64,000 nucleotides of DNA from an uncultured Chloroflexia bacterium (GTDB taxonomy: Bacteria; Chloroflexota; Limnocylindria; Limnocylindrales; CSP1-4): positions 3,766,325 to 3,830,324 of the forward strand of contig OY969796.1 in the NCBI GenBank assembly GCA_963703155.1. The letters are read 5' to 3'. Below the pieces are notes generated by a model. That model was not told the origin of the DNA. It worked only from the letters and a program-made list of their open reading frames with translations, and did no database searches. Below are positions 30,134 to 62,329 of this stretch, piece by piece (the stretch's first letter is position 1; every line of letters begins with the position of its first letter). Both the position numbers and the translations under genes were made by a program.

Positions 30134-31081
30134 TCAGGAACCGACGATGTGCGTCCCGGCTCGGCCGTGGAGCGCCAGCTCGAGGTTCCCGGGGCTGGAG
30201 ATGACCGCCTCGCCGCCGCCCCGCTCCAGGAACCCGATGCAGGCCTCGATCTTCGGGGCCATGCTGCCGGGCGCAAAGTGCGTCCCGTCGGCGAGATAGG
30301 CGCGCGCCTCATCGAGGGTCAAGCGGTCAACGAAGCGCTGCGTCGGCTTGCCCCAGTCGAGCGCGACCCGCTCAATCGAGGTGCTGATGACGAACAGGTC
30401 GGCACTGATGACGGTCGCCAGCAAGGCTGACGCATAGTCCTTGTCGATGACGGCAGCGATCCCGTGGAGCAGGCCGTGCTCGTCGGCCACGACGGGGATG
30501 CCGCCTCCGCCGACGGTGATGACCACGAACCCGTCGTGGAGCAGCGCCCGGACGGCCCGCTCCTCCACGATCCGGATCGGCTTCGGCGATGGCACCACCC
30601 GTCGCCACCCGCGGCCGGCGTCCTCCCGCACCGACCAGCCGTCGACATCGCGGCGCCGGAGCGCCGTCGCCTCGTCCATGAACGAGCCGATCGGCTTGCT
30701 GGGGTTCGCGAACGCGGGATCGTGGGCGTCGACCTCCACCTGGGTCACGACCGTGACAGCCTGACGCCGCATCCCCATCTGGCGGAAGTCGTTCGCCAGG
30801 TTCTGCTGCAGCTCGTACCCGATCGCGCCCTGAGAGTCCGCGCCGCACACGTCGAGCGGGACTTCGTGGAGTTCGTGCGCCGAGAGCTCGGATCGGCGCA
30901 GGATGAACCCCACCTGCGGGCCGTTCCCGTGGCCGATCGCGACGTGCCACCCTTCCTTGATGATCGCGGCGATGTGGCCGCTCGTCTCGCCGAGCGCCGC
31001 GTACTGGTCCGGGACCGTCATGTGCTGCGGGTCCCGGATGAGCGAGTTGCCGCCGATCGCGACGACGAGGGTCTTGGTCAC
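30134..31081 (-). CDS. arcC: carbamate kinase
   Basis: 315 aa. LVVAIGGNSL, HGNGPQVG and the amino-acid kinase fold support the call. Confidence 0.85.
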   Translation of the reverse strand: MTKTLVVAIGGNSLIRDPQHMTVPDQYAALGETSGHIAAIIKEGWHVAIGHGNGPQVGFILRRSELSAHELHEVPLDVCGADSQGAIGYELQQNLANDFRQMGMRRQAVTVVTQVEVDAHDPAFANPSKPIGSFMDEATALRRRDVDGWSVREDAGRGWRRVVPSPKPIRIVEERAVRALLHDGFVVITVGGGGIPVVADEHGLLHGIAAVIDKDYASALLATVISADLFVISTSIERVALDWGKPTQRFVDRLTLDEARAYLADGTHFAPGSMAPKIEACIGFLERGGGEAVISSPGNLELALHGRAGTHIVGS

Positions 31082-31151
31082 GCCGTCTCCTCCTGATTCG
31101 CCGCCAGCCGGCCAGGCGGCCGGGACGATGACCGCCTGCCCTGACTCGGCA

Positions 31152-32129
31152 TCACCGCATCGTCAGCGCCATGACGGCCTTCTGGGCGTGGAGCCGGTTC
31201 TCGGCCTGGTCGTAGACGACCGAATGCGGGCCGTCGATGACCCCGTCGGCCACCTCGACGTTCCGGTCCGCGGGGAGCGGATGCATGTAGATCGCATCCT
31301 CTCGGGCCAGCCCGATCCGGCGCTCGTCGGTGATCCAGTCCGTGTACCGCCGCGCGGTTGCGGCTCCCTCCTCCTCGGAGGTGGCCGTGAGCAGCGCGCC
31401 CCAGCTCTTCGCATACACGATGTCGGCGCCGCGCATGCCCGCGTCGAAGTCGTCCATCAGCTCGAAGCTGCCGCCGCTGCGGCGGGCGTTCTCGGCCGCC
31501 TGGTCCACGTACTCCTGTGGCAGCCGGAACTCCGGCGGGTGGACCAGCCGGACGTGCATCCCGTAGCGGGTGGTGAGGAGCGAGAGGTCCACGGGCACGC
31601 TGATCGGCTTCTGGTAGCTGGCGGCGTACGCCCAGCTGATGTCGATCGTCCGCCCGCGCGGATCGCCCTTCTGCTCGATGATCGTCAGCAGGTCGGCCAG
31701 CGACTGGTGGGGGTGGAACAGGTCGCACTGCATGTTGAGCACCGGGACGCGCGACGCCGCGGCCACCTCCCGGAGGTACGCGTTGCCGACGCCCCAGTCG
31801 CAGTGCCGGATCGCGATCCCGTCGTTGTAGCGGCCGAGGATCTCGCCGATCTCCTTGGGCGTGTCGCCGTGGGCGATCTGCGTGGTCCGGCTCTCGATGA
31901 ACTGGGCGTGGCCGCCCAGCTGCGCCATCCCGGCCTCGAAGGAGGCACGGGTCCGCGTCGACGAGAAGAAGAACAGCATCGCGAGGACGCGGTCCCGGAG
32001 CAGCGGGTGCGGGATCCCGAGGGCCCGCTCCCGCTTGAGCTGCATGGCCACGTCGAGGACGGTGTCGACCTCGTCCTTGGTCCACTCCTGGAGCGTGATC
32101 AGGTCGCGGCCCTTGAGCCCGGTCTGCAT
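31152..32129 (-). CDS. YgeW-type (knotted) carbamoyltransferase
   Basis: Block-by-block match to E. coli YgeW. TQIAHGDTPKEIGEIL...GVGNAYLREV, NMQCDLFHPHQSLADL, ISWAYAASYQKPISVP, SGGSFEL...ADIVYAKSW, AIYMHPLPAD and STRTR are all present. Confidence 0.8.
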   Translation of the reverse strand: MQTGLKGRDLITLQEWTKDEVDTVLDVAMQLKRERALGIPHPLLRDRVLAMLFFFSSTRTRASFEAGMAQLGGHAQFIESRTTQIAHGDTPKEIGEILGRYNDGIAIRHCDWGVGNAYLREVAAASRVPVLNMQCDLFHPHQSLADLLTIIEQKGDPRGRTIDISWAYAASYQKPISVPVDLSLLTTRYGMHVRLVHPPEFRLPQEYVDQAAENARRSGGSFELMDDFDAGMRGADIVYAKSWGALLTATSEEEGAATARRYTDWITDERRIGLAREDAIYMHPLPADRNVEVADGVIDGPHSVVYDQAENRLHAQKAVMALTMR

Positions 32130-32142
32130 CGTGGGCCCCCGG

Positions 32143-33096
32143 TCACTCGGCCGCGCCGAGGATGAGCGCGAGCATGCCCATCTTCAGTGCGACGCCGTTG
32201 AACGCCTCGGACCAGTACCGCTGGTGGCGCGTGGCGTCCACGTCTTCGGGCAGCTCGTCCATGCGCGGCAGCGAGTGGAGGATGATCGAGGAGCGCTTCG
32301 CCTTGTCGTGCAGCAGCTGCCGCGTGACGACGTACTCCGGCGGGGTAAGCCCCACCTTGTCGCCCCGCTCGACGCGCGACGCGGTGTAGTCGGCCTGGAC
32401 GACCGGCTCCATGTAGATGATGTCCGCCTCGCCGATGACGTCGCGGACGTCCCCGGCCTCCTGGTAGTCCACGTTGAGCGCGTCGATCTCCGCCTTGAAC
32501 TCGGGCAGCAGGCTCATGTCGGGCGGGCCGACCACGATCGCCTTGGCGTCGAACTGCGACAGGGCGTACAGGATCGAGTGCATCGTCCGCATCCGCATGT
32601 CGCCGACGAGCAGGTATGTCAGCCCGTCGAGGGTGCCCTTCTCGTGGAGGATCGTGTAGAGGTCGGTCAGGATCTGGGTGGGATGCTCGCCCCATCCGTC
32701 GCCGCAGTTGATGACGGGGACCGACGCCCACTTCGCGGCCTCCGCCGGCGCGCCCTGCTGGAAGTGGCGGATCGCGATGACGTCCGCGTAGTACTCCAGC
32801 ATGTGGAACGTGTCCTTGATCGACTCCTGGTAGAAGTCGCCGGCGCGGGTCATCTTCGAATCGGAGAACCCGAGCACCTGCCCTCCGAGGCGGTGCATCG
32901 CGGCCTCATGGGAGAGCCGCGTGCGCGTGCTGGGCTGGTAGAACGCGGTGAGCAGGGTCTTGTCCTTCAGCAGGTCCGTGTTCCGGCGGTCCCGGGCGAA
33001 CGGGCGCAGGTCGTCGGCGACCTGGAAGACGCGGAAGAACTCGTCGCGGCTGAAGTCCTTGAGCGACAGGATGTCCCGGCCGAGGAAGCTTCTCAT
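32143..33096 (-). CDS. aspartate/ornithine carbamoyltransferase family protein (ATCase-like)
   Basis: STRTRLS, HPTQ and HSLPR motifs. 317 aa. The ATG overlaps the upstream stop (ATGA). Confidence 0.75.
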   Translation of the reverse strand: MRSFLGRDILSLKDFSRDEFFRVFQVADDLRPFARDRRNTDLLKDKTLLTAFYQPSTRTRLSHEAAMHRLGGQVLGFSDSKMTRAGDFYQESIKDTFHMLEYYADVIAIRHFQQGAPAEAAKWASVPVINCGDGWGEHPTQILTDLYTILHEKGTLDGLTYLLVGDMRMRTMHSILYALSQFDAKAIVVGPPDMSLLPEFKAEIDALNVDYQEAGDVRDVIGEADIIYMEPVVQADYTASRVERGDKVGLTPPEYVVTRQLLHDKAKRSSIILHSLPRMDELPEDVDATRHQRYWSEAFNGVALKMGMLALILGAAE

Positions 33097-34552
33097 CGTG
33101 CGATCTGCTCCTGTGGACGCGAGGTGGCGGCCGCGACGATGGGCGGTGGCACCCGCCCGTCGTCCCTCCGGACGCCGGTGAACAGGACGGCCACGGTCTC
33201 GCCCTCCCGGACGAGGCCGCTCCGTGTCAGTGAGAGGAGGCCGGCGAGGCCGGCCGTACCGGTGTGGTCGACATCGATCCCAGTCGACGTGCGCCCGAGC
33301 TCGTTCGCCGCACGGACGGTGGCCTCGTCAACGGCGACCGCGCCGCCGCCGGTCCGCTCCATCGCCTCGACGACGGCTGCCCAGTCGTACGTCTCGTCGT
33401 CGAGGATGCCGTGCGCGACGCTCGATGGCTCGGTTTCCCAGGGCCGCATGTACGCGGAGCGGTGCGTCCGGGCATGCGCGAGGGCCGGTCCGGGGCCTGT
33501 GAGGGCGACACGCTCTCGGAACCGCTGCCACGCGCGAACGAGCGGCGCGCACCCCTCGGTCTGGACGGCGTAGAGCCTCGGCTCGCGCTCGATGGTCCCG
33601 AGCACGTGCGCCTCGGCGAAGGCTGCCGCGACTGCGGAGGCGAGTGCGCCGCCACCGACCTGGATCACGACCGCATCCAGACGCGCCCGAGCCTCCGTGC
33701 GGCTGGCGCGCGCCTGGCGGACCAACTGCGCGACCATCTCGTAGCCGATGGTCTGGCCGCCCTCGATGGCGAGGCCGTTCTCGTTGCCCTGGCAGGTGAA
33801 CGGGACGGCCCCATGGGCAATCGCTTCGCGCAGGCGGCGGTAGGTCGGGTCGCCCGTCTCGCCGGCCTCTCGCCGACAGGCGACGACGTCGGCACCGAGC
33901 TCACGCAGCCTCGCGACCACGACCGGGTCCGCCCAGGTGGGGACGTAGACGTCGAGGGGCCGGGCTGCGGCGCGCGCGACGACGGCGGCCGCCAGCGCCG
34001 CGTTCCCGCAGCTGGCGATCGCGAGGCGGCCCGTCACGATGCCGGGCGCGAGCTCGTCGGCGACCAACAGGTCGATCATGACCCCCATCAGGTGGCGCGC
34101 CTTGTGCGAGCCCGTGACGTTCGTCGTCTCGTCCTTGACGAGGAGGCGTCCTGCTGCCAACCCGGCCCGGGCGGCGAGCACCGGGGCCGGCTCGAATGGC
34201 GTCTCGCGGAACCCGTGCCCGTCGACCGCCGCGACGCTCGCGTCCAGGCGCCCGACGAGGGCGACGTAGCGCTCGTCCGACCACCCCTCGGCACGGGCGA
34301 TGTGGTAGGCGCGCGAGAGGGTGCGGTAGCGCGCGAACGTCCCGGCATCGAGCCCCGCGTCCGGTCCGGCGTCGGGGAACGCGAGGCGGGCCGGGTCGAT
34401 GGAGCGGCGGAGGACGTGGTCGATGTCATCCCCGTCCCGCGCGGCCGGGCAGCGGGCGATGAAGGCGATCTCATCGGGCACCACGTGCCCGCACCCAGCG
34501 CAGGCGAGCCGGATCGGAAGCGGCCGCCTGGCGGCTGACCCGCGCGGAGCCG

Positions 34553-34556
<4 letters not shown>
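33093..34556 (-). CDS. PLP-dependent enzyme (fold type II, threonine synthase-like) with an N-terminal Cys4 zinc ribbon
   Basis: TGSHKAR PLP-lysine motif and CAGCGH...C. The GTG start overlaps the upstream stop (GTGA). Confidence 0.6.
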
Positions 34557-36052
<1,496 letters not shown>

Positions 36053-36219
36053 CTGCTCCTCCAGGGCCTCCGCCTCGTCACGGACGCCTTCGGGTCTGAA
36101 CGGGCCGCCGTCCTCGGGACGAACAGCAGGGTCTCGCTCGCGACTACCTCCGTACGATTGGGGATGGCAGCATGCCGCCGATAGGGCCGGATGGCGCCTG
36201 CGGCGGAGAAGGACGGTCC

Positions 36220-38961
36220 GTGGAGTTCACCCTCAACGGCCGACCGGTCTCGATCGAGGCCGCGCCGGATGACAGCCTCCTCGATCTCCTGCGAGGCAGC
36301 CTGGGTCTCCGGTCCATGAAGGACGGGTGCGCGCCCGAAGGTTCCTGTGGGGCGTGCACCGTGATCGTGGACGGTCACGCCGTGGTCTCCTGCGCGCAGC
36401 CCGCGACCCGGGTCGCCGGCCGGACGGTCGAGACGCTCGAGGGTCTGTCCGAGGCGACGCGCACCTCGTGGGCCGACGCCTTCGCGCGCACCGGGGCCTC
36501 ACAGTGCGGGTTCTGCTCGCCGGGCATCGTGATGAAGGCCGAGGCGCTCCTGCGCCGCCAGCCCGACGCGACCGCCAGCGACATCGCGCATGCCCTCGCC
36601 GGGAACCTCTGCCGGTGCACCGGGTACGCGCGCATCGTCGAGGCGGTGCTCGCTGTGGCGAAGGCCCGGCGCGGGGAAGCGACCGACGCCCGGCGCCGGA
36701 GCAGCAGGGCGTCTCGCAGCCCGGCGTCGATGGCTCCTGGCCGATCGGGACGCCAGCGGAGCGGTACCACGCACGCGAACTGGCCCTGGGGGAACAGGCC
36801 TTCGTCGCTGACATGCGGGCGCCCGGGATGCTCCACGGTGCCCTCCGCTTCTCGGACCACCCCCGGGCGGTCGTCCGCCGCATCGACATCTCGCGGGCGC
36901 TCGCCGAGCCCGGCGTCGTCGACGTCATCACGGCTCGAGACGTGCCGGGCAAACGCCAACAGGGGCTGATCGTGGACGACTGGCCGCTGCTCGTGGCCGA
37001 GGGCGAGACGACGCGCTATGTCGGTGACGTGCTCGCCGCCGTCGCCGCGACGACGCGGGCCGCCGCTCGTCGGGCGGCCTCCCTGATCGAGGTGGACTAC
37101 GACGTCCTCGAGCCCCTCACCGACCCGTTCGCCGCGCTCGCTGACGGCGCCCCGGCCCTCCACCCGGGCGGCAATGTGGTGTCGCGGTCCGTCGTCCGCC
37201 GGGGCGACGCGGCCTCGGCGATCGGCGCAGCTGCACACGTCGTGACCGACTCGTTCCGGACCCAGGCGATCGAGCACGCGTTCCTCGAGCCGGAATCGTG
37301 CCTCGCGGTGCCGGGTCGGGCCGCCGACAGCGGATCGGCCGCGGCGGGGACGCCCGCGGACGCCGAGGCGGTGCGCGTCTTCTCGCAGGGGCAGGGCGCC
37401 TGGGAGGACCGCCGCCAGATCGCCTCGTTCCTCGGCCTCCCAGAGCGCGCGGTGCGCGTGACACAGGTCGCCACCGGCGGCGCGTTCGGCGGCAAGGAGG
37501 ACCTCAACGTCCAGGGCCAGGCCGCGCTGCTCGCGATCCGCACGGGACGACCGGTGCTGATCGCCCTCAGCCGGCGCGAGAGCCTGCGGTTCCACGTGAA
37601 GCGCCACCCGTTCTGGATGACGTACACCGTCGCCTGCGACGCGGACGGTCGGCTGACGGCGGTGCGCGCGCAGATGGTCGGCGACAACGGCGCGTACGCG
37701 AGCGTCGGCGGCAAGGTCCTCGAGCGTGCCGCCGGTCATGCCTGCGGGGCGTATCGCGTGCCCAACGTCGACGTGGAGGCGACCGCCGTCTATACGAACA
37801 ACCCGCCGTCGGGGGCGATGCGCGGCTTCGGCGCCAGCCAGGCGAACTTCGCGCTCGAGTCGCTGATCGACGCTCTTGGCCGAGCGGGTCGGGATCGACG
37901 GCTGGGAGATGCGCTGGCGGAACGCGCTCGACGTCGGCGACCGGTTCGGCACGGGTCAGTTGCTCGGGCCGGGCGTTGGCGTGAAGAAGACGCTCCTCGC
38001 CGTCCGCGACGCCTACCGGTCGGCCCGCTTCGCCGGCATCGCCTGCGCCGCGAAGAACACCGGGATCGGCAACGGGCTGCGCGAGTTCGGACGCGCCGTC
38101 ATCCGCGCGGAGGCAGACGGGACGCTGACGCTGTACCACTCCTGGACCGAGATGGGGCAGGGCTGCCACACCGTGTTCCGCCAGATCGCCGCCGCCGAGC
38201 TCGACGTCGACCCCGGCCGGATCCGCGTGGTCGTGGACACCGACCACGAGCTCGACACCGGCGAGACGACGGCCTCGCGGGCGACGATGCTCGGCGGGCG
38301 GGCGGTGGTCGAGGCGGCGCGACGCCTCCTCGCTGCCCTGGGAGGACGCCCACCCGATCCGGCAGCCATCGCCGCCCTGGCCGGCCAGGAGTTCGCAGAC
38401 GAGGTGGTCATCGACTGGACGACGCCGCTCGGGGCCGAGGGCGAGCCCGTCACCCACTTCGCCTACGGCTGGGCGACCCAGGTCGTCATCCTCGATGACG
38501 ATGGCGTCATCGAGCGGGTCATCGCGGCGCACGACGTCGGGCGCGTCCTGAACCCCACGCTGCTCGCGGGGCAGGTCGAGGGCGGGGTGCACATGGGTCT
38601 CGGCCAGGCGCTGACCGAGGAGTTCGTCGTCGAGGGTGGCGTTCCGCGGACGGACACGCTCAAGTCACTGGGGATCATCCCGGCCACGGCCATGCCGCCG
38701 GTCGAGTGCATCTTCGTCGAGGAGCCCCAGCCCGAGGGTCCGTACGGCGCCAAGGGCATGGGCGAGGCCGTCCTCGTGCCGACCGCGGCCGCTGTCGCAG
38801 GCGCCCTCCACAGCTTCGACGGCATCCGCCGGACGAGCCTCCCGATGCACGATTCGGCCGCCGCGAGAGCGGTGCTGCCGCGGCTGGCCGCGAAGGCTCA
38901 CCCCCATGCCGACGCCCGGCCCGTCACGGTTGCCCGCGTCGTCGAAGACGCCCCGGCATGA
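36220..38961 (+). pseudogene. XdhD/MOP-like fused [2Fe-2S] plus molybdopterin-binding oxidoreductase, with two apparent frameshifts (about 36650-36730, and a +1 at 37875-37879)
   Basis: The N-terminal 2Fe-2S domain (CGACTV..., CGFCSPG, CRCTGY) starts at GTG 36220 after GGAGAAGGA. The Mo domain (GTPAERYH...PGMLHG...) is in another frame with no start codon near its conserved N-terminus. The C-terminal part (AERVGIDGWEMRWRNAL...) is in a third frame after cttggcc. Confidence 0.65.
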
Positions 38962-39993
38962 CGCCGCTCGGCCCCGCCGTCACGCCGGGTCTTGTCGACG
39001 CCCACCACCACCTCTACTCGGCCCTCGCCCGCGGGATGCCCGCGCCCCGGACCACGCCGACAACGTTCCGCGGCATCCTCGAGCAGGTCTGGTGGCGCCT
39101 CGACCGCGCGCTCGACCTCGAGATGATCGCCGCGTCGGCCCGGCTGGGAGCCCTCGAGGCCCTCGAATCCGGGACCACCGCGATTGTGGACCATCACGAG
39201 TCGCCGAACGCGATTGAGGGGTCCCTCTCGATCATCGCCGACGCCTGTGCCGAGGTAGGCGTCCGGGTCGTCTGCGCCTACGGCGTCTCGGACCGGAACG
39301 GTGAGGACGGCGCGAAACGTGGATTGGCGGAGAATCGCCGGTTCCTGGCAGCGGGCGGCCGTGGCCTCGTCGGGATCCATGCCGCGTTCACCTGCTCGGA
39401 TGCGACGCTCGAGGCGGCGGCGGATCTTGCCCGCGAACACGGGGTGGGGTGCCACGTCCACGTGTGCGAGGGGCGGGAGGACTGGGACGCGCCGGCACGG
39501 CTCACGTCGCTGGCGACCGATCGGTGGCTGCTTGCCCACGCGGTCCATCTGCCGGCCCCCCACCAGCTCGCTGGCACGATCGTGCACAACCCGTTCTCCA
39601 ACCTGAACAACGCCGTCGGGTACGCACGCCCCGCGCGCTTCAGCGGGCCGGTGGCGCTGGGGACCGATGGCATCGGCGCGCAGATGCTCGAGACGTTCCG
39701 CCTCGCGTACGCGCTGCATCGGTCGGTCGACGTGACCGCGGAGCCGACCACCGCCTGGCGCTGGCTCGAGGCGGGGTGGGACCTGGTGCCCGCAGTGCGC
39801 GAGGACCGGGTGACGTGGTCGTACGAGCCGATCGAGCCATGGCACGTGGCCTTCACGCCCGGGATCCGCCCGCTGCGCGTGGAGATCGGCGGGGAGCTGG
39901 CCCTCGACGACGGCGTGCCGACCCGGGTCGACGCGCGCGGAGATCAGGGCGCACGCCCGCGAGCAGGCCGCGCGACTCCATGCGCGGCTCTGA
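38958..39993 (+). pseudogene. SsnA/chlorohydrolase-like amidohydrolase with a +1 frameshift in gcgcgcgg (39933-39940)
   Basis: Metal-binding HHH (VDAHHHLY), HxH and D motifs. The native C-terminus ...VDAREIRAHAREQAARLHARL* is only read after a 1-nt shift. Confidence 0.65.
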
Positions 39994-41911
39994 GGTGGTG
40001 GGGCCCGCCGCCGATCGTGGCCCAGTCGCCGCATTCTCGCCGCTCCCCCTCAGCGTCCTGCTCCGACGCATCGCCCACGAATGGCGGACGAGACACGCCA
40101 TCTTCGACCTGGCGCCAGGCCACTTCTTCAACGCGTCGGCCGGCCCGGACCTCTCGGTCCGCTTCCTCGGCCGCCCGGCCGCGACCCCGCTCGGCCCTGC
40201 TGCCGGCCCGCACACGCAGCTCGCGCAGAACATCGTGCTCGGCTGGCTCGGCGGCGCGCGGATCGTCGAGCTCAAGACCGTCCAGGCGCTCGACCGGCTC
40301 GAGATCCCGCGGCCGTGCATCGACATGGAGACCGTGGGCTACAACGTCGAGTGGAGCCAGGAGCTCCGCCTCGAGCAGTCGCTCGAGGAGTACGTCAAGG
40401 CCGCGATGATCGTCGAGATCCTCGGCGGCTGGGACGAGCTGGGCCCGTTCCTGGGCCCCGACCCGGGCCCGCGCATCTTCGACCTGTCAGTGGGCTACGA
40501 CCTCGCCGGCATCGCATCGCCCCGGGTCGCGGCGTTCATCGACGGGATGGTCGACGCGCGACCGACCATCGACCGCCTCCGGGCCGAGATCCCCGAGCCG
40601 TTCGCCGCCTGGCGCGATCACCCCTTCGCGAGCGCCGTCTCGGGCTCCGCCACGGTCTCGACGTTCCACGGCTGTCCGCCCGGCGAGATCGCGGCCATCG
40701 CCCGCCACCTCATGACACGCCACGGCCTCGATGTCGTCGTCAAGCTCAACCCGACGCTCCTCGGGCGCGAGCGCGTGTCGGCCATCCTGCACGACCGACT
40801 CGGGTACGAGGAGATCCAGCTGCGGCCGGAGGCCTTCGACGCCGACCTGTCGCTCGAGGGGGCGGTGGACCTCATCGGGGAGCTCGACGCCTTCGCGCGC
40901 GGGCACGGGCGGCGCTTCGGCATCAAGCTGACCAACACGCTGGTGGTCGCGAACCATCGTGGCGTGCTGCCCGCCGACCCGATGTACCTCTCCGGGCCGC
41001 CGCTGCACGTCCTCGCGGTCACGCTCCTCGACGAGCTTCACCAGGCCCTGCCCGGGACGCTGGCCATCGGGGAGGGGAGCGGCTCCGTGGAGGTGAGCTT
41101 CTCGGCCGGGGTCACGAAGCACAACATCGCCGATGTCGCGGGGCTTGGCGTCGCGCCGATCTCGGTCTGCTCGGACCTCCTCCGACCCGGGGGCTACGGA
41201 CGGCTCAAGCCGATGCTGGTGGCGCTCGGCGAGCGGATGGCGGCAGCGGGGTGCCCCGACATCGCCGCCTGGCGGGGGCACCAGGCTGAAGAGGCGGTCG
41301 GCGCTGGGGCGACCGATGCCGTCGCGGGATACGCCGGGCACCTGAACACCGTGGAGGGCGCGCTGCCCTACACCAGATCGACGACGGGGCACCCGCTCCG
41401 CCACGTCGACCGGGTGCTGGCGCGGTGGGACTGCGTGGCCTGCAACGAGTGCGTGACCGTCTGCCCGAATGACGCCTTCTTCCGCGTGGAAGCCGGACCG
41501 GACGTCGCCCTGTCGTCAGCGCACCAGTACGTCTACCTCGCCGAGCTCTGCAACCGCTGCGGCAACTGCGCGGTCTTCTGCCCCGAGGAGGGCGACCCCG
41601 CCGCCGTCAAGCCGGCCCTGTTCCTCGACCCTGGCTGTTTCGCCGCCAACGACCGTCTGGGGTTCCTCCTGGCGCGGGAGGGCGACAGGCTGCTGGTGGT
41701 CCCCGCGCCCGGCATCGACCAGGCCGACGCGGAACGGCTCGGGCGGCTCCTCGACGCCCCGAGGGGCCTCCCCCTCGACCCGCGGGATCTCGCCGTCACC
41801 CGCGGCGCCGGGCCGCCGGCAGGGCACGAGCGACGGATTGTCCCCGTCGAGCCGCGCGCATCCTCCGAGACGCACCGGTGCGATCGATCGCCGAGCGGGA
41901 GTGGCCGATGA
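39980..41911 (+). CDS. Fe-S flavoprotein: DHOD/DPD-like TIM-barrel oxidoreductase with a C-terminal 2x[4Fe-4S] ferredoxin domain (PreA/YgfK-like)
   Basis: Two CxxCxxCxxxCP motifs (CVACNECVTVCPNDA, CNRCGNCAVFCPEEG). The barrel assignment is by pattern only. Confidence 0.55.
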   Translation: MRGSEVVGPAADRGPVAAFSPLPLSVLLRRIAHEWRTRHAIFDLAPGHFFNASAGPDLSVRFLGRPAATPLGPAAGPHTQLAQNIVLGWLGGARIVELKTVQALDRLEIPRPCIDMETVGYNVEWSQELRLEQSLEEYVKAAMIVEILGGWDELGPFLGPDPGPRIFDLSVGYDLAGIASPRVAAFIDGMVDARPTIDRLRAEIPEPFAAWRDHPFASAVSGSATVSTFHGCPPGEIAAIARHLMTRHGLDVVVKLNPTLLGRERVSAILHDRLGYEEIQLRPEAFDADLSLEGAVDLIGELDAFARGHGRRFGIKLTNTLVVANHRGVLPADPMYLSGPPLHVLAVTLLDELHQALPGTLAIGEGSGSVEVSFSAGVTKHNIADVAGLGVAPISVCSDLLRPGGYGRLKPMLVALGERMAAAGCPDIAAWRGHQAEEAVGAGATDAVAGYAGHLNTVEGALPYTRSTTGHPLRHVDRVLARWDCVACNECVTVCPNDAFFRVEAGPDVALSSAHQYVYLAELCNRCGNCAVFCPEEGDPAAVKPALFLDPGCFAANDRLGFLLAREGDRLLVVPAPGIDQADAERLGRLLDAPRGLPLDPRDLAVTRGAGPPAGHERRIVPVEPRASSETHRCDRSPSGSGR

Positions 41912-42195
41912 TTGAGCATTGGTTCGCCGGGCAAGGCTGGACCGCGGTCGGCGTCGCCCTCCCGTTGTTCGCCTTGTCAGGGGGGATCCTCCTGTGGCTT
42001 CGCGGTCCCGGCGCCCGCCCGCACAACCCGCCCGTCAACCGCGCGGGCGTCCGCTGGGCGGCGGTCACATCTGCCCTGATGGGCGCGTTGTGGCTCGTCG
42101 ATGCAGTCGCGGGGACCGGGGGCGTCGTCGTGGTCGGGGCCATCGTGGTGGCCGTGGCGATCGGCGCTTCGGTGCGGTCGCGGTCTCGCTCGTAG
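41908..42195 (+). CDS. hypothetical small membrane protein
   Basis: The ATG overlaps the upstream stop (ATGA). 95 aa with 3 hydrophobic helices. Confidence 0.4.
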   Translation: MIEHWFAGQGWTAVGVALPLFALSGGILLWLRGPGARPHNPPVNRAGVRWAAVTSALMGALWLVDAVAGTGGVVVVGAIVVAVAIGASVRSRSRS

Positions 42196-42248
42196 CGCGC
42201 CGCCCCACAGCTGGCGACGCGGGAGATCAGCGGCGCAGCGTCGCCGGT

Positions 42249-43640
42249 TCAGCCAGGCGACTCGGCGAGGACCACCCGTCGCAGGATCCTGCCGCTGACG
42301 GCCCGCCGGTACTCGGCGGTGGAGCGCACATCGTCGATCGGCCGGACGTCGACCTGCGCGGCGAGGGCGGCCCGCTCAGCGACCTCGCGAGAGGGGATCG
42401 CGCCCTCGAGGACGTCCTCGGCGCGCTCAGCCCGAATCGGGACCTCGGCGACCGACCCGAAGGCGACGCGCACGTCGGACCACACCGCGCGACCGTCCGG
42501 GCGGCGCCACGACACCGCCAGCACGACCTTCGAGACCGCCTGCGCCCGCCGCGTCCCGACCTTGCGGAAACGGACCTGGCGGTCGGCGACGAGCGGGATG
42601 CGGATCGCCGTCAGCAGCTCGTCGTCGAGGCGGGCGGTGCGACGGTAGCCGGTGAAGAAGTCGGCGGCATTCACCGCGCGTTCCCCCGCGTGACCGCGGA
42701 GCACGAGCCGCGCATCGGTTGCGAGGAGGAGCGGCAGCGTGTCCCCAGCGGGCGATGCGGTCATGACGTTGCCGCCCACCGTCCCGCGGTTCTGGATCTG
42801 CCGGGCGCCGACGCACGCAGCGACCTCGGCGAACACGGGCAGCACCCCGGCGATCTGCGTGGACCGGCGCAGGTCGGTGTACGTCGTCAAGGCGCCGATG
42901 ACGAGCTCGGCGCCCTCGCGGCGCACGCCTCGCAGCCCCTCGATCGCGGTGAGGTCGACGAATCGCGCGTCGGGCGGGATCGACCCCGCCGCCAGGCCGG
43001 CCATCAGGTCGGTGCCGCCGGCGAGTGGACGCCAGCCGTCGGCGACGAGCTCGAGGGCCTCATCGAGCGAGCTGGCGCGCATGACGGTGGGCCCGCCGCC
43101 CAGGCTCGAGACCGGGCGGGCCGCCACGCGGGATCCGGGACTGCTTCGGAACGCACGTGGGGTCGATGCAGCCGCCGCGATCGCCTCGATGATCTTCGTG
43201 TAGCCCGTGCACCGGCAGAGGTTCCCGGCAATCGCCTCGCGGATGGACGCGTCCGTGGGCGCGGCATCCGATGCGAGGAGGGCATGAGCCCCGATGAGCA
43301 TGCCGGGTGCGCACATCCCGCACTGCACCGCGCCCGCATCGAGGAAGGCCGCCTGCACGGCGTCGAGCGGTCCGCCCTCCGCGGCGAGTCCCTCGACCGT
43401 CACCACGTCGCGGCCGTCCACCTGGCAGACCGGCAGCAGGCAGCTGTTGACGACCTCGCCATCGACGAGGACGGAGCACGCCCCGCACTCCCCCTCCCCG
43501 CAGCCCTCCTTCGTCCCGGTGAGGCCGAGGTCAAGGCGGAGGACATCGAGCAGGCGCCGCCCACCCGGGGCCTGGACCTCGACGGCCTCGCCGTTGATCG
43601 TGAAGGTGACCGTCGACGACGACGGGCGGACGAGCGTCAT
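42249..43640 (-). CDS. xdhA: xanthine dehydrogenase small subunit, fused [2Fe-2S] and FAD-binding (Rhodobacter XdhA-like)
   Basis: Two 2Fe-2S clusters (CGEGECGACSV, CGMCAPG, CRCTGY), then a CO-dehydrogenase-flavoprotein-like FAD domain. 463 aa. Confidence 0.8.
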   Translation of the reverse strand: MTLVRPSSSTVTFTINGEAVEVQAPGGRRLLDVLRLDLGLTGTKEGCGEGECGACSVLVDGEVVNSCLLPVCQVDGRDVVTVEGLAAEGGPLDAVQAAFLDAGAVQCGMCAPGMLIGAHALLASDAAPTDASIREAIAGNLCRCTGYTKIIEAIAAAASTPRAFRSSPGSRVAARPVSSLGGGPTVMRASSLDEALELVADGWRPLAGGTDLMAGLAAGSIPPDARFVDLTAIEGLRGVRREGAELVIGALTTYTDLRRSTQIAGVLPVFAEVAACVGARQIQNRGTVGGNVMTASPAGDTLPLLLATDARLVLRGHAGERAVNAADFFTGYRRTARLDDELLTAIRIPLVADRQVRFRKVGTRRAQAVSKVVLAVSWRRPDGRAVWSDVRVAFGSVAEVPIRAERAEDVLEGAIPSREVAERAALAAQVDVRPIDDVRSTAEYRRAVSGRILRRVVLAESPG

Positions 43641-45907
43641 CACGCCACCCCCGGTCCGACGACGCCATCGGGACCCGCCGCGAGCGCGGCGAGCACGCGC
43701 TCCGGGGTCGCCGGCAGCTCCGTGATCCACACGCCCACCGCGTCCTGGATCGCGGCGATCACGGCTGGCGCGCCCACGTCCATCGGCAGCTCGCCGAGGC
43801 CCTTCGCCCCGTGCGGGACACCCGAGAACGGTCGCTCGACGAAGAGCGCGGTGATCCGCGGCGCATCGACGGCGGTCGGGATGAGGTAAGTCGTCAGGCG
43901 GTCGTTCCGGTAGCGGCCCTCCTCGACCTTGAGCTCCTCGAGCGTCGCGTAGCCGACCGCCTGGAGCGTTCCCCCCTCGACCTGGCCCGTGGCGAGCCGG
44001 CGGTTCACCACGCGGCCGACCTCGTCCACCTGGACCACCGACCGCACGACGACTTCGCCGGTGTCGGTGTCCACGTCAACCTCGGCCACGGCCGCAGCCC
44101 AGCTGTAGGCCGGGTAGGCATCGCCATGGTGCGCCGCCTCGTCCCACTCAACCCCCGGGAAGCCGGCGAACTGCTCGTCGATCCGAACGGGCCCGTGCGC
44201 TGCGGCCCACGGGCGGTACGCGTCGGCGAACGGCTGGCCCGTCTGCGCCTCGACCTCGTCACGCAGCCGGCCGGCGGCACCGACGAGGAGACCGCCCACC
44301 ACCATCGTGGAGCGCGAGGCGACCGTGGGGCCGCTGTTCGGCACAACGGACGTGTTGACGCTCGCGACCGTGACCGCATCAGCCGGGATCCCCAGGCGCT
44401 CGGCGACCAGCTGGGCCAGGACGGTGCGCGATCCCTGGCCGATCTCAGCGGTGGACGCGAGGATCCGAACCTGCGCGTCGGCTGTCAGCTCGATCGCGGC
44501 GATGCTCGCGAGGCGGGTCTCGCCGCTCCCGGTGAAGCCGGCGCCGTGCCATCCGGTGGCGAGCCCGACCCCGGACGCGATGGGGCTGTCGAGGTCGCCT
44601 GCCGCGCGGGCCAGGCGTGCGTCGGCCGTGCACTTGCGCTTGTGCTCGAACTCAGACGCCTCGACCGCCCGGCTGAGCACGTCGAGCGCCCCGACGCTCT
44701 CGCGGAGCCGCTGGCCGGTCGCGGTCGTGTCGCCCTCCATGTACGCCCACCGCCAGCGCAGGGTGTCGGGCGAGACGCCGAGCCGCTCGGCGATGCGATT
44801 GACGTGCGTCTCCACCGCGAACTCGACCTGCGGGGCGCCGAAGCCGCGGAACGCCCCGTTCGGCGGCGTGTTCGTCGCCATGGCCCGAGCCCGGATCCGG
44901 ACGTTCGGGCAGGCGTACGGCCCGGCGGCGTGGATCGCCCCGCGGGAGAGGACCACCGGCGAGATCGTTGCGTACGCGCCCGCATCCAGGACGATGTCGA
45001 TCTCCTGGGCCAGCAGCCGCCCGTCAGCCGACACCGCCGTGCGGTGGGTGACGATCGAGGGGTGCCGCTTCGTCGTGGCGATCAGGTCCTCGTGGCGGTC
45101 GTAGGCCATGCGCACGGGGCGGCCAGCCGCGCGGGCGAGCAGCGCCGCGTGGATGGCGATCATCGAGGGGTACTCCTCCTTGCCCCCGAACCCGCCGCCG
45201 GTCTCGGCCTGGATGACAACCGTCCGTTCGTCATCGAGCCCCATCGCCCGCTTGACCGCGGCGTGGACGTAGTAGGGGCACTGGAGGGACCCAATGATGG
45301 TGACCCCGCCGTCGTCACGGGGTACGGCGATGATCGCCTGGTTCTCGAGGTAGAGCTGCTCCTGGTGGCCGGTCCGGTAGGTGCCCTCGAGGACGATGGC
45401 GTCGGCGGGGAGCGCCGCGAACGCCGCCTCCACGTCCCCCTTCACGATCTCGTACCGCGCGAACGCCCGCGTCGATGCCAGCGCATCGATGACGGCCTCG
45501 AGCGGCTCGGTGCGCAGGACGATGTGGTCGCGCGCGGCCCGCGCGGTCTGCGGGTCGGCGGCAGCAACGAGCGCGACAGGCTCCGCCACGTGGCGGATCT
45601 CGCCGTCGGCGAGCGCGGGCTGATCGTCGGAAATGAGGCTGACGACGTTCTGGCCGGGGATGTCCGCCGCGGTCACGAGCACGACGGACGACCAGTCGAA
45701 CGCGGGGTCACGCTCAACGGCCAGGAGGCGGGCGCGCGCATGGGTCGAGCGCACGGTCGCGCCGTACCAGGCGCCGGGCACGACGAGGTCGTCGGTGAAG
45801 AGGGCTTTCCCCGTTACCTTCTGCGGGCCGTCGGACCGCTGGACGTCACGCTGGCCATTCGGCGACTCAAGCGGTGGGCGGGCGACACGCTCGAGCAAGT
45901 CAGCCAT
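43640..45907 (-). CDS. xdhB: xanthine dehydrogenase molybdopterin-binding large subunit
   Basis: 755 aa. KVTGKALFTDD N-terminus and GGGFGGKE motif. Stop/start overlap with xdhA. Confidence 0.85.
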   Translation of the reverse strand: MADLLERVARPPLESPNGQRDVQRSDGPQKVTGKALFTDDLVVPGAWYGATVRSTHARARLLAVERDPAFDWSSVVLVTAADIPGQNVVSLISDDQPALADGEIRHVAEPVALVAAADPQTARAARDHIVLRTEPLEAVIDALASTRAFARYEIVKGDVEAAFAALPADAIVLEGTYRTGHQEQLYLENQAIIAVPRDDGGVTIIGSLQCPYYVHAAVKRAMGLDDERTVVIQAETGGGFGGKEEYPSMIAIHAALLARAAGRPVRMAYDRHEDLIATTKRHPSIVTHRTAVSADGRLLAQEIDIVLDAGAYATISPVVLSRGAIHAAGPYACPNVRIRARAMATNTPPNGAFRGFGAPQVEFAVETHVNRIAERLGVSPDTLRWRWAYMEGDTTATGQRLRESVGALDVLSRAVEASEFEHKRKCTADARLARAAGDLDSPIASGVGLATGWHGAGFTGSGETRLASIAAIELTADAQVRILASTAEIGQGSRTVLAQLVAERLGIPADAVTVASVNTSVVPNSGPTVASRSTMVVGGLLVGAAGRLRDEVEAQTGQPFADAYRPWAAAHGPVRIDEQFAGFPGVEWDEAAHHGDAYPAYSWAAAVAEVDVDTDTGEVVVRSVVQVDEVGRVVNRRLATGQVEGGTLQAVGYATLEELKVEEGRYRNDRLTTYLIPTAVDAPRITALFVERPFSGVPHGAKGLGELPMDVGAPAVIAAIQDAVGVWITELPATPERVLAALAAGPDGVVGPGVA

Positions 45908-47372
45908 GGCTCGCCGCCGCGCCCACCAGCGTCCGTCCGATCGCCTCGGGGACCTCTGCCGCCGATGGCCCGTGCGGCCGGCCGTCCTCCAGCCGTCGCC
46001 CGCGGACCCACGCCGCGCGGACCATGTCCGGATGCTGCCGGAAGATCAGCCGGCCGATCAGCTCCTCGGGCTCGTCGGCCTCGGCTCCGGGCACGGGCAT
46101 CGTGAACTGCGGGTCAACGGCGACCATGTCGGCCTCCTTGCCGGGTTCCAGCGAGCCCACCCGTTCGTCGATCCCGAGCGCCCGGGCGCCTTCGATCGTC
46201 CCGAGCGCCAGCCAGTCCAGCGGTGACATCGGCGAGATCCGCGAGATCGGCGCCAGGGCCGTCGTCGAGTCGGCGTCGGCCGTCGCGCGCAGCAGCCCGT
46301 GCGTGTACGCACCCGCGCGCATGACCGAGAAGAGCGAGAGCGTGGGGCCTCCCGCAACGTCCGAGCCGAGCCCGACGACCAGACCCGCGGCCCGATACCG
46401 CGACAGCGGCATCGCCCCGCTCCCGAGGAAGAGGTTCGACTCCGGGCAGTGCGCGATGACCGTCCCCGTCTCGGCCAACCTGCCGATCTCGCGCGCGGAG
46501 AGGTGGATGGCGTGGGCCATGATCGTCCGCGCCCCGAGACCACCGGCCCGGTCGTAGACGTCAACGTAGTCGCGCGCGGCGGGGAACAGCCTCGCCACCT
46601 CGGCGAGCTCGTCCCGGTCCTCGGAGAGGTGCGTCTGCCAGTAGGCGCCCGTCGCCCGGGCCAGCACGGCAGACTCCCGGAGCAGCTCGGCGGTGCAGCT
46701 CACCGCGAAGCGCGGCGTGAAGGCGTACGAGAGCCGCCCGTCGTCACGCCCGTGCCACCGCTCGCACAGCTCGGCCGACTCGCGGAGCTCCACCTCGAGA
46801 CGCTGTTCCGGGGGTGTGTCACGGTAGGAGATCCGATCCATCATCACCCGACCCGCGACGAGCCGGATGCCATGCGCCTCCGCCGCCCGGAACGTCTCGT
46901 GCAGGCTCGGGGCCCACGCCGCGCCGTAGAGCACGACGGTGGTGGTCCCGAGCGCGGCCATGCGCTGGAAGGCGAGCGGCGCGAGGCTCGCCGCCGCCGG
47001 CCCGTCGAAGGTGCGCTCGAGCGGATAGATGTACCGCCCGAGCCACTCGAGCAGGTGGAGGCCCGCCCCGAGGCCCGCGTTGGGCAGCTGCGGCAGATGG
47101 GCGTGCAGGTCGATGAGTCCGGGGAGCAGGGCGAGCGGCCGGATGTCGACCACGCTCAGCCTCGGCTCCGGGCCCTGCTCGCGGGCCGCCTCCCAAGCCT
47201 CGTGGTCGGTGACCTCGGCGATCCGTCCGGCCGCGTCCACAGCGATGACGCCATCCGGGAGGAAGCGCGTGCCTCCCTCCCCGAGAGGAGTCACGATCCG
47301 TGCCCGGACCACGAATGGCCCGCGCCGCGGCAGGGCATCGAGTGCCCCGACCGCCTGTCGGTCGTCGGTCAC
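45900..47372 (-). CDS. guaD: guanine deaminase (amidohydrolase family)
   Basis: PGLIDLHAHLPQ motif plus the HxxE (HLSE), HA/HCP and D motifs. The start is uncertain; GTG 47372 was chosen. Confidence 0.7.
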   Translation of the reverse strand: MTDDRQAVGALDALPRRGPFVVRARIVTPLGEGGTRFLPDGVIAVDAAGRIAEVTDHEAWEAAREQGPEPRLSVVDIRPLALLPGLIDLHAHLPQLPNAGLGAGLHLLEWLGRYIYPLERTFDGPAAASLAPLAFQRMAALGTTTVVLYGAAWAPSLHETFRAAEAHGIRLVAGRVMMDRISYRDTPPEQRLEVELRESAELCERWHGRDDGRLSYAFTPRFAVSCTAELLRESAVLARATGAYWQTHLSEDRDELAEVARLFPAARDYVDVYDRAGGLGARTIMAHAIHLSAREIGRLAETGTVIAHCPESNLFLGSGAMPLSRYRAAGLVVGLGSDVAGGPTLSLFSVMRAGAYTHGLLRATADADSTTALAPISRISPMSPLDWLALGTIEGARALGIDERVGSLEPGKEADMVAVDPQFTMPVPGAEADEPEELIGRLIFRQHPDMVRAAWVRGRRLEDGRPHGPSAAEVPEAIGRTLVGAAASHG

Positions 47373-59809: not shown

Positions 59810-59813
59810 CACG

Positions 59814-60677: not shown

Positions 60678-60692
60678 GGTCGGGAACCGCCC

Positions 60693-62321: not shown

Positions 62322-62329
62322 GGCGCGGG

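Follow-up and report, generated by a model that had tools for sequence, protein, structure and literature searches.

A probable Limnocylindria-type variant of the reductive urate pathway, encoded by a conserved purine-catabolic gene cluster with two carbamoyltransferases

We analysed a stretch of 64,000 nucleotides (the window) from an uncultured Chloroflexia bacterium assigned to the Limnocylindria of the Chloroflexota (NCBI GenBank assembly GCA_963703155.1, contig OY969796.1, positions 3,766,325 to 3,830,324 of the forward strand), in which a block of purine-catabolic genes lies at 30134-47372. Genes in this DNA of about 72% G+C were called by third-position GC (GC3) and checked against NCBIfam and Pfam. 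The block consists of three transcription units. Unit 1, on the minus strand, encodes in transcription order two fold-type-II pyridoxal phosphate (PLP) enzymes (PLP2, then PLP1), two carbamoyltransferases (CT2, then CT1) and carbamate kinase, and its first three junctions are 4-nt overlaps or short gaps. Unit 2, on the plus strand and divergent from unit 1, encodes a fused molybdenum hydroxylase, an SsnA-like amidohydrolase and a YgfK-like reductase. Unit 3, on the minus strand and convergent with unit 2, encodes a guanine-deaminase-like enzyme followed by the molybdopterin (Mo) and the 2Fe-2S plus FAD subunits of a hydroxylase of the xanthine dehydrogenase (XDH) type. The features are:

30134-31081, minus strand: carbamate kinase, the YqeA equivalent (TIGR00746, NF009007)
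31152-32129, minus strand: CT1, a compact YgeW-type carbamoyltransferase of 325 aa (motifs, identity to YgeW)
32143-33096, minus strand: CT2, an aspartate transcarbamylase (ATCase)-like 'pseudo-ATCase' of 317 aa (TIGR00670)
33093-34556, minus strand: PLP1, a fold-type-II PLP enzyme of 487 aa (PF00291, 142 bits)
34553-36052, minus strand: PLP2, a fold-type-II PLP enzyme of 499 aa (PF00291, 51.9 bits)
36053-36219, no strand: divergent control region of 167 nt between the PLP2 operon and the hydroxylase operon (four conserved blocks)
36220-38961, plus strand: fused 2Fe-2S/molybdopterin hydroxylase with no FAD domain (TIGR03311 after frame correction)
38958-39992, plus strand: short-form SsnA-like amidohydrolase of 344 aa (NF005540 as best family)
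39980-41911, plus strand: truncated YgfK-type reductase, YgfKN (partial match to TIGR03315, Fer4)
42249-43640, minus strand: 2Fe-2S plus FAD subunit of a second, XDH-type Mo hydroxylase (Pfam domains)
43640-45907, minus strand: molybdopterin subunit of the second hydroxylase (pucD, TIGR02965, Pfam)
45900 to about 47372, minus strand: guanine-deaminase-like amidohydrolase (TIGR02967), start uncertain, its open reading frame (ORF) being open to 47516

Every gene type named in an earlier note on this DNA was present near the position given there, as judged by NCBIfam and Pfam, and its view of the block as a purine-catabolic cluster homologous to Escherichia coli ygeW/yqeA/xdhD/ssnA/ygfK, beside an XDH-type enzyme and a guanine-deaminase-like gene, was confirmed. 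It had missed that the hydroxylase runs through three reading frames and that ssnA is frameshifted, that the PLP enzymes are not YgeX orthologues, and that the 64 kb hold no HyuA, YgeY or YgeX. By tblastn, homologues of HyuA, YgeY, YgeX, YqeB and YqeC had no match anywhere in the window. The cluster flanks are unrelated to purine metabolism, with GH31, LacI and DinB proteins on one side and a Tyr phosphatase, a short-chain dehydrogenase/reductase (SDR), a metallo-beta-lactamase fold protein (MBL) and an alcohol dehydrogenase (ADH) on the other.

The corresponding E. coli region is ordered ygeW-ygeX-ygeY-hyuA-yqeA...ygfK-ssnA-ygfM-xdhD. Its pathway, described in the earlier note as not firmly established, was solved in 2025 as a reductive urate pathway by Li et al. 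(PMC12507026) and Liu et al. (bioRxiv 10.1101/2025.04.24.650524), who demonstrated a role for each E. coli or Clostridium homologue. In these two accounts, urate is converted to 2,8-dioxopurine by XdhD-YgfM or XdhAC, and YgfK or UacX carries out the reductive dearomatisation of 2,8-dioxopurine. SsnA then performs the first ring opening, and HyuA opens the hydantoin ring to give 2,3-diureidopropionate. One ureido group is removed by YgeW through phosphorolysis, with YqeA making ATP from the carbamoyl phosphate, the second is hydrolysed by YgeY, and YgeX converts diaminopropionate to pyruvate (PMC12507026; bioRxiv 10.1101/2025.04.24.650524). Which of the two ureido groups is cleaved first is still under dispute (PMC12990295); Liu et al. 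have YgeW take the 3-ureido group first, with 3-amino-2-ureidopropionate as the proposed intermediate (bioRxiv 10.1101/2025.04.24.650524). With the pathway established, allantoin and oxamate no longer apply as candidate substrates, and the combination of carbamoyl phosphate with carbamate kinase for ATP formation, which had seemed surprising, is the expected one.

Related loci were collected by scanning the C-terminal piece of the hydroxylase against one genome per species, and the best 80 of 352 relatives were compared. They belong mainly to the Chloroflexota (Limnocylindria and 'Chloroflexia' metagenome-assembled genomes, MAGs, with at most 84% identity) and also cover Actinomycetota, Armatimonadota and Dormibacterota. 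SsnA was present in 61 of the 80 loci, CT1 in 57, CT2 in 56, PLP2 in 55, PLP1 in 49 and carbamate kinase in 42; CT1 and CT2 occurred together in 50, with a median gap of 23 nt. All seven core genes were co-conserved in loci of several phyla. The clustering of these genes is not due to chance, and the block is a real, selected purine-catabolic unit. Adenine deaminase, an 8-oxoguanine deaminase equivalog and nucleoside-type ABC permeases are the purine genes that join the cluster in relatives, together with GntR/UTRA regulators. HyuA homologues were found in 9 of the 80 loci, YgeY in 4 and YgeX in none, and YqeB and YqeC matched in none of them. Gene order varies among the related loci. One sub-type of the cluster (L017:11652-13094, L021:11857-17923, L019 and L023) has the order GntR-CT2-CT1-carbamate kinase-hydroxylase, all in one direction, carries ABC permeases and an adenine deaminase besides the 8-oxoguanine deaminase equivalog, which scored 644 bits (cutoff 532), and has no SsnA within 10 kb.

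The carbamate kinase passed two curated models (NF009007, 375.2 bits against a cutoff of 266; TIGR00746, 360.1 against 358.25) and was 47% identical to E. coli YqeA over its full length. CT1 was 36% identical to E. coli YgeW and scored below all NCBIfam cutoffs, the models for ornithine transcarbamylase (OTC), acetylornithine transcarbamylase (AOTC) and YgeW giving about equal scores (176.6 against 453 on the YgeW model NF005538, 163.2 against 500 on TIGR03316). An alignment with E. coli ArgI and YgeW showed that CT1, like its 48 orthologues, has the YgeW motifs WAYxxSYxKPxSVP, which forms the proline-rich loop, and GxGNAYxREV in the extended 120s loop, as well as Y-A/P-K-S-W at the start of the 240s loop and MHxLPAD. 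In this alignment, SWAYAASYQKPISVP and CDWGVGNAYLREV of CT1 lie opposite TWAYSPSYGKPLSVP and MYLGAGNAYMREV of YgeW. Knotted transcarbamylases are recognised in the literature by a proline-rich loop and an extended 120s loop (PMC4581275). CT1 and its orthologues were all without the OTC motifs DxxxSMG and HCLP, and CT1 was rejected as a canonical OTC on this ground. Compared with the YgeW transcarbamylase (YTCase; PDB 3Q98, 2YFK; PMC4581275), CT1 has the same proline-rich loop, 120s loop, Lys-Ser-Trp start of the 240s loop and MHxLPAD, but it is shorter (325 aa against 396 aa): the additional helices at both termini of YgeW, two more in its 240s loop and 11 residues inserted behind its 120s loop are all missing from CT1. 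The presence of the YgeW motifs and the absence of the extra helices make CT1 a compact YgeW-type enzyme; the earlier description of it as clearly YgeW-type thus holds for the motifs and not for the model score of 176.6 against 453.

CT2 passed the PyrB model TIGR00670 narrowly (246.9 against 236.95) and fell below NF002032 (216 against 263); its best PDB match was the ATCase of P. abyssi. In an alignment of 49 sequences, the window protein and 48 orthologues, the carbamoyl-phosphate site was kept (in ATCase numbering S52, with one exception, T53, R54, T55, R105, H134 and Q137) and R167 was invariant (n = 49). The aspartate side of the active site had changed: R229 is replaced by Pro in 49 of 49 sequences, Q231 by Thr or Glu and K84 by Tyr, while HPLP has become HSLP. 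With the aspartate ligands Arg229 and Gln231 (RxQ) and Lys84 lost, CT2 was rejected as a canonical ATCase. A place in the canonical PyrB clade had been named beforehand as a result that would speak against the purine/ureide-type reading; CT2 nominally takes that place by passing TIGR00670, and is removed from it by the substitution of Arg229 (to Pro) and Gln231 (to Thr or Glu) throughout the alignment.

Proteins of this kind have been described as pseudo-ATCases. One of them, Rxyl_2847, is a ureidoglycine carbamoyltransferase, by which allantoate, a diureido acid, is cleaved by phosphorolysis (PMC4016543, Barba et al. 2013), and the subgroup-2 member of Nocardioides sp. JS614 adjoins a ygeW homologue, xdhABC and hyuA (PMC4016543). 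CT2 resembles the published proteins in being ATCase II-like, in keeping STRT and HPTQ, in having H[ST]LP for HPLP, in the loss of RxQ and in its non-pyrimidine context, here beside a YgeW-type gene, XDH and carbamate kinase. At the RxQ position CT2 has Pro-Val and then an insertion of 5 residues, which agrees with none of the motifs published for the three subgroups, AIA/AIS/SIA, GX[SC] and VXP (PMC4016543).

The distribution of the carbamoyltransferases among relatives points to a role for CT2. In three loci (L014, L041 and L047), where the CT1 plus CT2 pair is missing, a YgeY homologue accompanies a true YgeW (44-46% identity to E. coli YgeW), and both PLP1 and PLP2 are kept; YgeY occurs in none of the 50 loci with CT1 and CT2 (Fisher p = 0.017, on small numbers). 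L030 was grouped with these three for the YgeW plus YgeY swap. The simplest reading is a natural swap between YgeW plus YgeY and CT1 plus CT2, that is, between hydrolytic and phosphorolytic removal of the second ureido group; since YgeW and YgeY occur where CT2 is missing, CT1 would be the counterpart of YgeW, and CT2 would replace YgeY. CT2 appears to be derived from an enzyme of N-alpha-carbamoyl amino acids and to have lost only the positively charged ligands of the beta-carboxylate, and for this reason we infer that 3-amino-2-ureidopropionate would fit its active site. Taken together, the two carbamoyltransferases suggest that phosphorolysis releases both ureido groups, with a possible yield of two ATP.

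No solved or curated family lies close to PLP1 or PLP2. Both keep the Schiff-base lysine motif GSHK, which is invariant in PLP1. PLP1 reached 101 bits on the NCBIfam ThrC model against a cutoff of 303, and PLP2 73 bits on a biosynthetic model against 351. PLP1 has a Cys-rich segment at its N-terminus; PLP2 has N- and C-terminal extensions and is highly conserved, with a ratio of nonsynonymous to synonymous substitution (dN/dS) of 0.10 and 88% identity to L001. The AlphaFold2 (AF2) model of PLP1 (pLDDT 86) was closest to ThrC, serine racemase and TdcB (threonine deaminase), and that of PLP2 (pLDDT 84) to cysteine synthase, cystathionine beta-synthase (CBS) and beta-cyanoalanine synthase, with target-normalised TM-scores of about 0.78. 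These last three are aminoacrylate-forming enzymes of beta-replacement or beta-elimination. PLP homologues are named 'threonine synthase' or 'cysteine synthase' by JGI and 'pyridoxal-phosphate dependent enzyme' by NCBI. The earlier claim that the cluster mirrors ygeX failed at this point: BLASTP of PLP1 and PLP2 against E. coli YgeX gave no match, and hhalign gave a weak alignment for PLP1 (81% probability, E = 1.2e-5, 199 columns) and 1.6% for PLP2. Judged by these comparisons, neither protein is the YgeX orthologue. We assign the conversion of diaminopropionate to pyruvate to the pair because YgeX was found in none of the 80 loci while the pair was retained. Candidate divisions of labour are a racemase with a lyase, two lyases, or a heteromer.

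The fused hydroxylase is interrupted in the window. Its three pieces, which scored 166, 426 and 299 bits on TIGR03311, match consecutive parts of that model, and the joined sequence passed it with 920.8 bits against a cutoff of 830. The reading frame changes from 0 to 2 at about 36690 and returns to 0 after 37871. The closest retrievable relative (L081, GCA_027325005.1; 87% nucleotide identity, same gene order) encodes an intact hydroxylase of 894 aa and an intact SsnA of 344 aa. Against it, the window has 20 additional nucleotides at 36678-36710, in the variable FeS-Mo linker, and one at 37873; a further single nucleotide at 39939 puts the last 18 codons of ssnA out of frame. Both single-nucleotide insertions lie a few bases 3' of a TCGACGC motif, and the indel sites are not long homopolymers. 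The dN/dS values against the same relative were 0.12-0.19 for the hydroxylase pieces and 0.15 for ssnA, as constrained as in the intact neighbours. The two genes are thus under strong purifying selection and have undergone no long-term decay. We regard assembly error as the likelier source of the three frameshifts and recent pseudogenisation as the less likely one. A problem with indels throughout the window was considered and rejected: a GC3-phase hidden Markov model flagged several other places, but Pfam resolved them into normal adjacent or overlapping genes (ArsR, AHSA1 and a hydrolase; CoxM, CoxS and CoxL). Related long-read MAGs have indels of their own, the CT2 of L002 (4268-5219) being split into two frames and the CT1 match in L001 (3397-4224) stopping at residue 276, so that assembly indels are evidently frequent among these genomes. 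An ORF of 525 aa at 36375-37952 on the minus strand, antisense to the middle part of the hydroxylase, was rejected as a real gene, as it matched no family.

The hydroxylase was 26% identical to E. coli XdhD and 29% to XdhA. Its FeS-Mo architecture with no FAD domain is that described for Clostridium sporogenes XdhAC, and it keeps the purine-type residues equivalent to E802, R880 and E1261 of bovine xanthine oxidoreductase (XOR), while the XdhD insertion that holds Glu606 is missing. It is presumed to be a urate/2,8-dioxopurine oxidoreductase. The earlier description of a fused FeS-Mo enzyme lacking FAD was correct, and the likeness to XdhD did not extend to the details. Upstream of this gene, the divergent region at 36053-36219 contains four conserved blocks, at 36093-36106, 36116-36130, 36151-36159 (with TACGAT, -10-like) and 36180-36195, whose sequences are GGTCTGAACGGGCC, GGGACGAACAGCAGG, CGTACGATT and GATAGGGCCGGATGGC. 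A strict regular expression for these blocks was found upstream of the hydroxylase gene in 22 of the 80 loci and once elsewhere in 2.6 Mb. Because of these blocks we take the GTG at 36220, and not the ATG at 36172, as the true hydroxylase start. A riboswitch was considered and rejected, with no Rfam match and with a single 5-bp helix lacking compensatory change in RNAalifold, and minimum free energy (MFE) z-scores of about 0 to -0.65 gave no support for RNA structure in this region. The blocks are probably promoter or operator DNA elements. A scan of two intergenic regions for inverted repeats and terminators gave nothing notable.

The ssnA start overlaps the hydroxylase stop in ATGA. Its product was 33% identical to E. 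coli SsnA and matched NF005540 with 247 bits against a cutoff of 444, over profile positions 56-340, the next family reaching 82 bits. It begins 13 residues before the HxH metal motif, so that the N-terminal part of about 50 residues in the E. coli protein is missing. This amidohydrolase is presumed to be the ring-opening enzyme. The short SsnA is the form paired with the YgfK-type reductase, in the window and in 13 YgfK-type loci; the SsnA type of other loci is about 50% identical and leaves room for an N-terminal segment. The YgfKN start, an ATG at 39980, overlaps the corrected end of ssnA, and the two genes are translationally coupled. YgfKN matched TIGR03315 with 408 bits against a cutoff of 835 and only over profile positions 4-397. 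It was 41% identical to YgfK residues 7-405 and 38% to residues 898-978, while residues 406-897, the GltD-like FAD/NAD(P)H module, were unmatched. YgfKN thus consists of the YgfK N-terminal domain and a 2x[4Fe-4S] domain with Fer4 matches in Pfam; in a PDB sequence search the ferredoxin part alone found matches.

The slot beside SsnA is filled by one of three unrelated reductases among the relatives: a YgfK-type protein in 13 loci, some of them full-length, a UacX-like protein with DHO_dh and Fer4 domains in 10 and an F420-type luciferase-like monooxygenase (LLM) in 28. Full-length YgfK including the GltD-like part was seen in L010, L014, L028, L052 and L064, and L001:12120-13607 and L023:11049-12062 are examples of the alternate reductases. 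A matching alternation of reductases has been reported for SsnA neighbourhoods (PMC12507026). Such interchangeable enzymes fit a single function, the reduction of 2,8-dioxopurine. According to the same study, neither YgfK nor UacX occurs in Chloroflexota, which use an F420-type enzyme instead (PMC12507026); the truncated YgfK in the window and 12 related loci and the UacX-like protein in 10 loci refine that statement.

The FeS/FAD subunit of the second hydroxylase has the Pfam domains Fer2, Fer2_2, FAD_binding_5 and CO_deh_flav_C, scored 307.8 on TIGR02963 against a cutoff of 467, and probably starts at the ATG at 43640, giving 463 aa as in L081. The Mo subunit scored 496 on the pucD model against 784 and 360 on TIGR02965 against 849.5, has the Pfam domains Ald_Xan_dh_C, MoCoBD_1 and MoCoBD_2, and retains the equivalents of E802, R880 and E1261. 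The subunit architecture fits XdhA/XdhB of the Rhodobacter type, although the scores of both subunits are below cutoff, and the enzyme is presumed to be a xanthine/hypoxanthine dehydrogenase. The guanine-deaminase-like protein was 33% identical to E. coli GuaD (TIGR02967, 335.6 against 375.4; NF006679, 334.5 against 351).

Based on these genes, we consider it probable that the block encodes a Limnocylindria-type variant of the reductive urate/2,8-dioxopurine pathway and that its frameshifts are assembly indels. The steps proposed here are drawn from homology and synteny. The guanine-deaminase-like enzyme and the FAD-containing XDH-type enzyme would funnel guanine, hypoxanthine and xanthine into urate, which the fused FeS-Mo hydroxylase would reduce to 2,8-dioxopurine. 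The YgfK-type reductase would then dearomatise 2,8-dioxopurine; as YgfKN keeps the substrate and ferredoxin-like domains and lacks the NAD(P)H/FAD module, it would need an external low-potential donor. The short SsnA would open the first ring. The second ring opening, carried out by HyuA in E. coli, is not encoded in the window and leaves a gap in the model; a hyuA-type gene may be unlinked. CT1 would perform the YgeW reaction on 2,3-diureidopropionate, CT2 would take the N-alpha-carbamoyl group by phosphorolysis in place of the hydrolase YgeY, and carbamate kinase could convert up to two carbamoyl phosphates into up to two ATP. Finally, PLP1 and/or PLP2 would convert 2,3-diaminopropionate to pyruvate and ammonia in place of YgeX.

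With the clusters of E. coli and C. sporogenes the window shares a Mo hydroxylase and a reductase of YgfK type, an SsnA-like amidohydrolase, and carbamate kinase together with a YgeW-type carbamoyltransferase. It also shares the location of these genes beside genes of XDH and guanine-deaminase type, and a probable tie between ureido cleavage and ATP through carbamoyl phosphate. In contrast to both clusters, it has an ATCase-like second carbamoyltransferase and two unrelated fold-II PLP enzymes instead of HyuA, YgeY and YgeX. The E. coli system differs further in the GltD-like NAD(P)H/FAD module of YgfK, in about 50 additional N-terminal SsnA residues, in an XdhD only 26% identical to the TIGR03311-type hydroxylase of the window, and in yqeB, yqeC and selD, which are not found nearby here. 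The known systems are those of gut anaerobes, and a recent commentary describes the pathway as restricted to obligate or facultative anaerobes (PMC12990295), whereas the host of the window is a high-GC Chloroflexota bacterium. In Clostridioides difficile, UacX replaces YgfK, and UacY replaces YgeW and YqeA (PMC12507026). That variant resembles the window in the modular replacement of steps, in a reductase without an FAD/NAD(P)H domain, which implies an external donor, and in a hydroxylase without YgfM. The replacement runs in the opposite direction, however: hydrolysis takes the place of phosphorolysis in C. difficile, with no ATP gain, while in the window a second phosphorolysis would take the place of the hydrolytic step. 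The arginine deiminase pathway, with a catabolic OTC and carbamate kinase, likewise joins phosphorolytic ureido cleavage to substrate-level ATP, but on another substrate, in another context and without two non-OTC carbamoyltransferases in series.

Several points weigh against the proposed pathway. SsnA, YgfKN, CT1, the XDH subunits and GuaD all score below the cutoffs of their curated families. The regiospecificity of the hydroxylase cannot be read from its sequence, with its low identity to XdhD and no Glu606 insertion, and the window sequence as given cannot make the full-length protein. HyuA is confined to 9 of the 80 loci and missing from the 64 kb, which leaves the second ring opening with no candidate. 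YqeB, YqeC and SelD genes were not found nearby, though the gut enzymes need selenium, and the roles of PLP1 and PLP2 are assigned by elimination and fold class alone. Three frameshifts within 3.3 kb, with none found elsewhere in the window, are also odd for random assembly error. This last point leads to a rather unlikely alternative, in which the cluster encodes the same pathway but is in the course of inactivation: the indels in the hydroxylase and ssnA would be real, the genes recent pseudogenes, and the upper pathway no longer run. It is favoured by the position of all three indels in one operon (36.7-39.94 kb), away from long homopolymers, and by the other phase changes in the 64-kb window being ordinary gene borders. 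However, dN/dS is as low as or below that of the intact neighbours, so that inactivation would have to be very recent; the downstream operons are intact, comparable isolated indels occur in long-read MAGs (the split CT2 of L002, the truncated CT1 match of L001), and the source contig of 4.15 Mb is typical of long-read assembly.

A different substrate is less probable still. The hydroxylase could act oxidatively on another purine or a pteridine, or the cluster could serve a different N-heterocycle, with analogous later chemistry. The modest identity of the hydroxylase to XdhD and XdhA and its missing Glu606 insertion are in line with this, as are the sub-cutoff scores of SsnA and YgfKN, the lack of HyuA, YgeY and YgeX in the window, and PLP enzymes from uncharacterised families. 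Yet the hydroxylase passes the TIGR03311 equivalog cutoff and keeps the E802, R880 and E1261 equivalents, relatives mix the cluster genes with true YgeW, YgeY, HyuA and full-length YgfK, and guanine, adenine and 8-oxoguanine deaminases together with XDH accompany the cluster. We judge it very improbable that the block serves an oxidative, allantoate-type route with CT2 as a ureidoglycine carbamoyltransferase and the reductive enzymes as unrelated neighbours. Such a route has a precedent in Rubrobacter xylanophilus, where a pseudo-ATCase stands beside carbamate kinase and XDH and allantoate phosphorolysis was shown (PMC4016543), and CT2 has the pseudo-ATCase hallmarks; but the neighbours scanned included no uricase, hydroxyisourate (HIU) hydrolase, 2-oxo-4-hydroxy-4-carboxy-5-ureidoimidazoline (OHCU) decarboxylase or allantoinase, CT2 is co-conserved with SsnA, the reductase and the fused hydroxylase in most loci, and its HSLP and Pro at 229 are unlike the HPLA and AIA/AIS/SIA of subgroup 1. 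That the minus-strand operon is ordinary biosynthesis placed beside purine genes by chance, with CT2 as PyrB, CT1 as ArgF, PLP1 as threonine synthase and PLP2 as cysteine synthase, is hardly credible: the narrow pass of CT2 on TIGR00670 and the JGI names of the PLP homologues would agree with it, but CT2 lacks Arg229, Gln231 and Lys84 in 49 of 49 sequences, CT1 lacks DxxxSMG and HCLP, both PLP enzymes stay far below the biosynthetic cutoffs, and CT1, CT2, PLP1 and PLP2 are coupled or adjacent to carbamate kinase and syntenic with the hydroxylase across phyla.

Under the preferred reading as a reductive urate pathway, it is conceivable, and we propose it tentatively, that a higher-yield variant operates in Chloroflexota, Actinomycetota and allied phyla of soil and fresh water, with CT2 in place of YgeY, two ATP per urate, the PLP pair in place of YgeX and a separate donor for the reductase. 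The core chemistry was published in 2025 and no new kind of biology is involved; CT2, the PLP pair and the truncated YgfK are the parts of most interest. Characterisation of the pathway has until now been confined to gut anaerobes, and the window with its 80 relatives adds a version that is well conserved and modular and occurs in uncultured bacteria, chiefly of the Chloroflexota and Actinomycetota. CT2, which can be mis-annotated since it passes the PyrB model without the aspartate ligands, would define a new enzyme activity and a two-ATP variant, and for two large, uncharacterised families of PLP enzymes a part in diaminopropionate catabolism would become a candidate function. The swap between YgeW plus YgeY and CT1 plus CT2 offers a handle on the order of ureido cleavage. 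If the proposal is true, CT2 would favour the order of Liu et al. in the dispute over regiochemistry, with YgeW taking the 3-ureido group first, because it is derived from an enzyme of N-alpha-carbamoyl amino acids and has lost only the beta-carboxylate ligands.

Other genes of the window were noted in passing. Two ORFs with coding-like GC3 and no family match border the cluster, one of 232 aa at 29426-30124 (plus strand) and one for a predicted membrane protein of 161 aa at 47501-47986 (plus strand). Downstream of the cluster lie two paralogous Zn-dependent alcohol dehydrogenases, two SDRs and two PEP-utilising proteins (PPDK_N/mobile domain), with coordinates 50918-51973 (plus), 55107-56165 (minus), 52864-55041 (minus) and 62330-63970 (minus) for these downstream genes; the ADH, SDR and PEP-utilising genes have no evident link to purine catabolism. 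A third Mo-hydroxylase set, with CoxM/CoxS/CoxL layout, occupies 56188-60692 on the minus strand: the FAD subunit at 59814-60692, the 2Fe-2S subunit at about 59345-59838 and the Mo subunit at 57072 to about 59344, then a putative cyclase at 56188 to about 57079. With Gln at the position of XOR E802 in its Mo subunit, this set is unlikely to be a purine hydroxylase. A regulator of the GntR/FCD kind is encoded at about 61614-62332. At 4229-6219 on the minus strand, two overlapping ORFs each cover a part of the class II aldolase domain (profile positions 12-169 in one, 66-181 in the other) and represent either a pair of tandem paralogues or a further gene with a frameshift.

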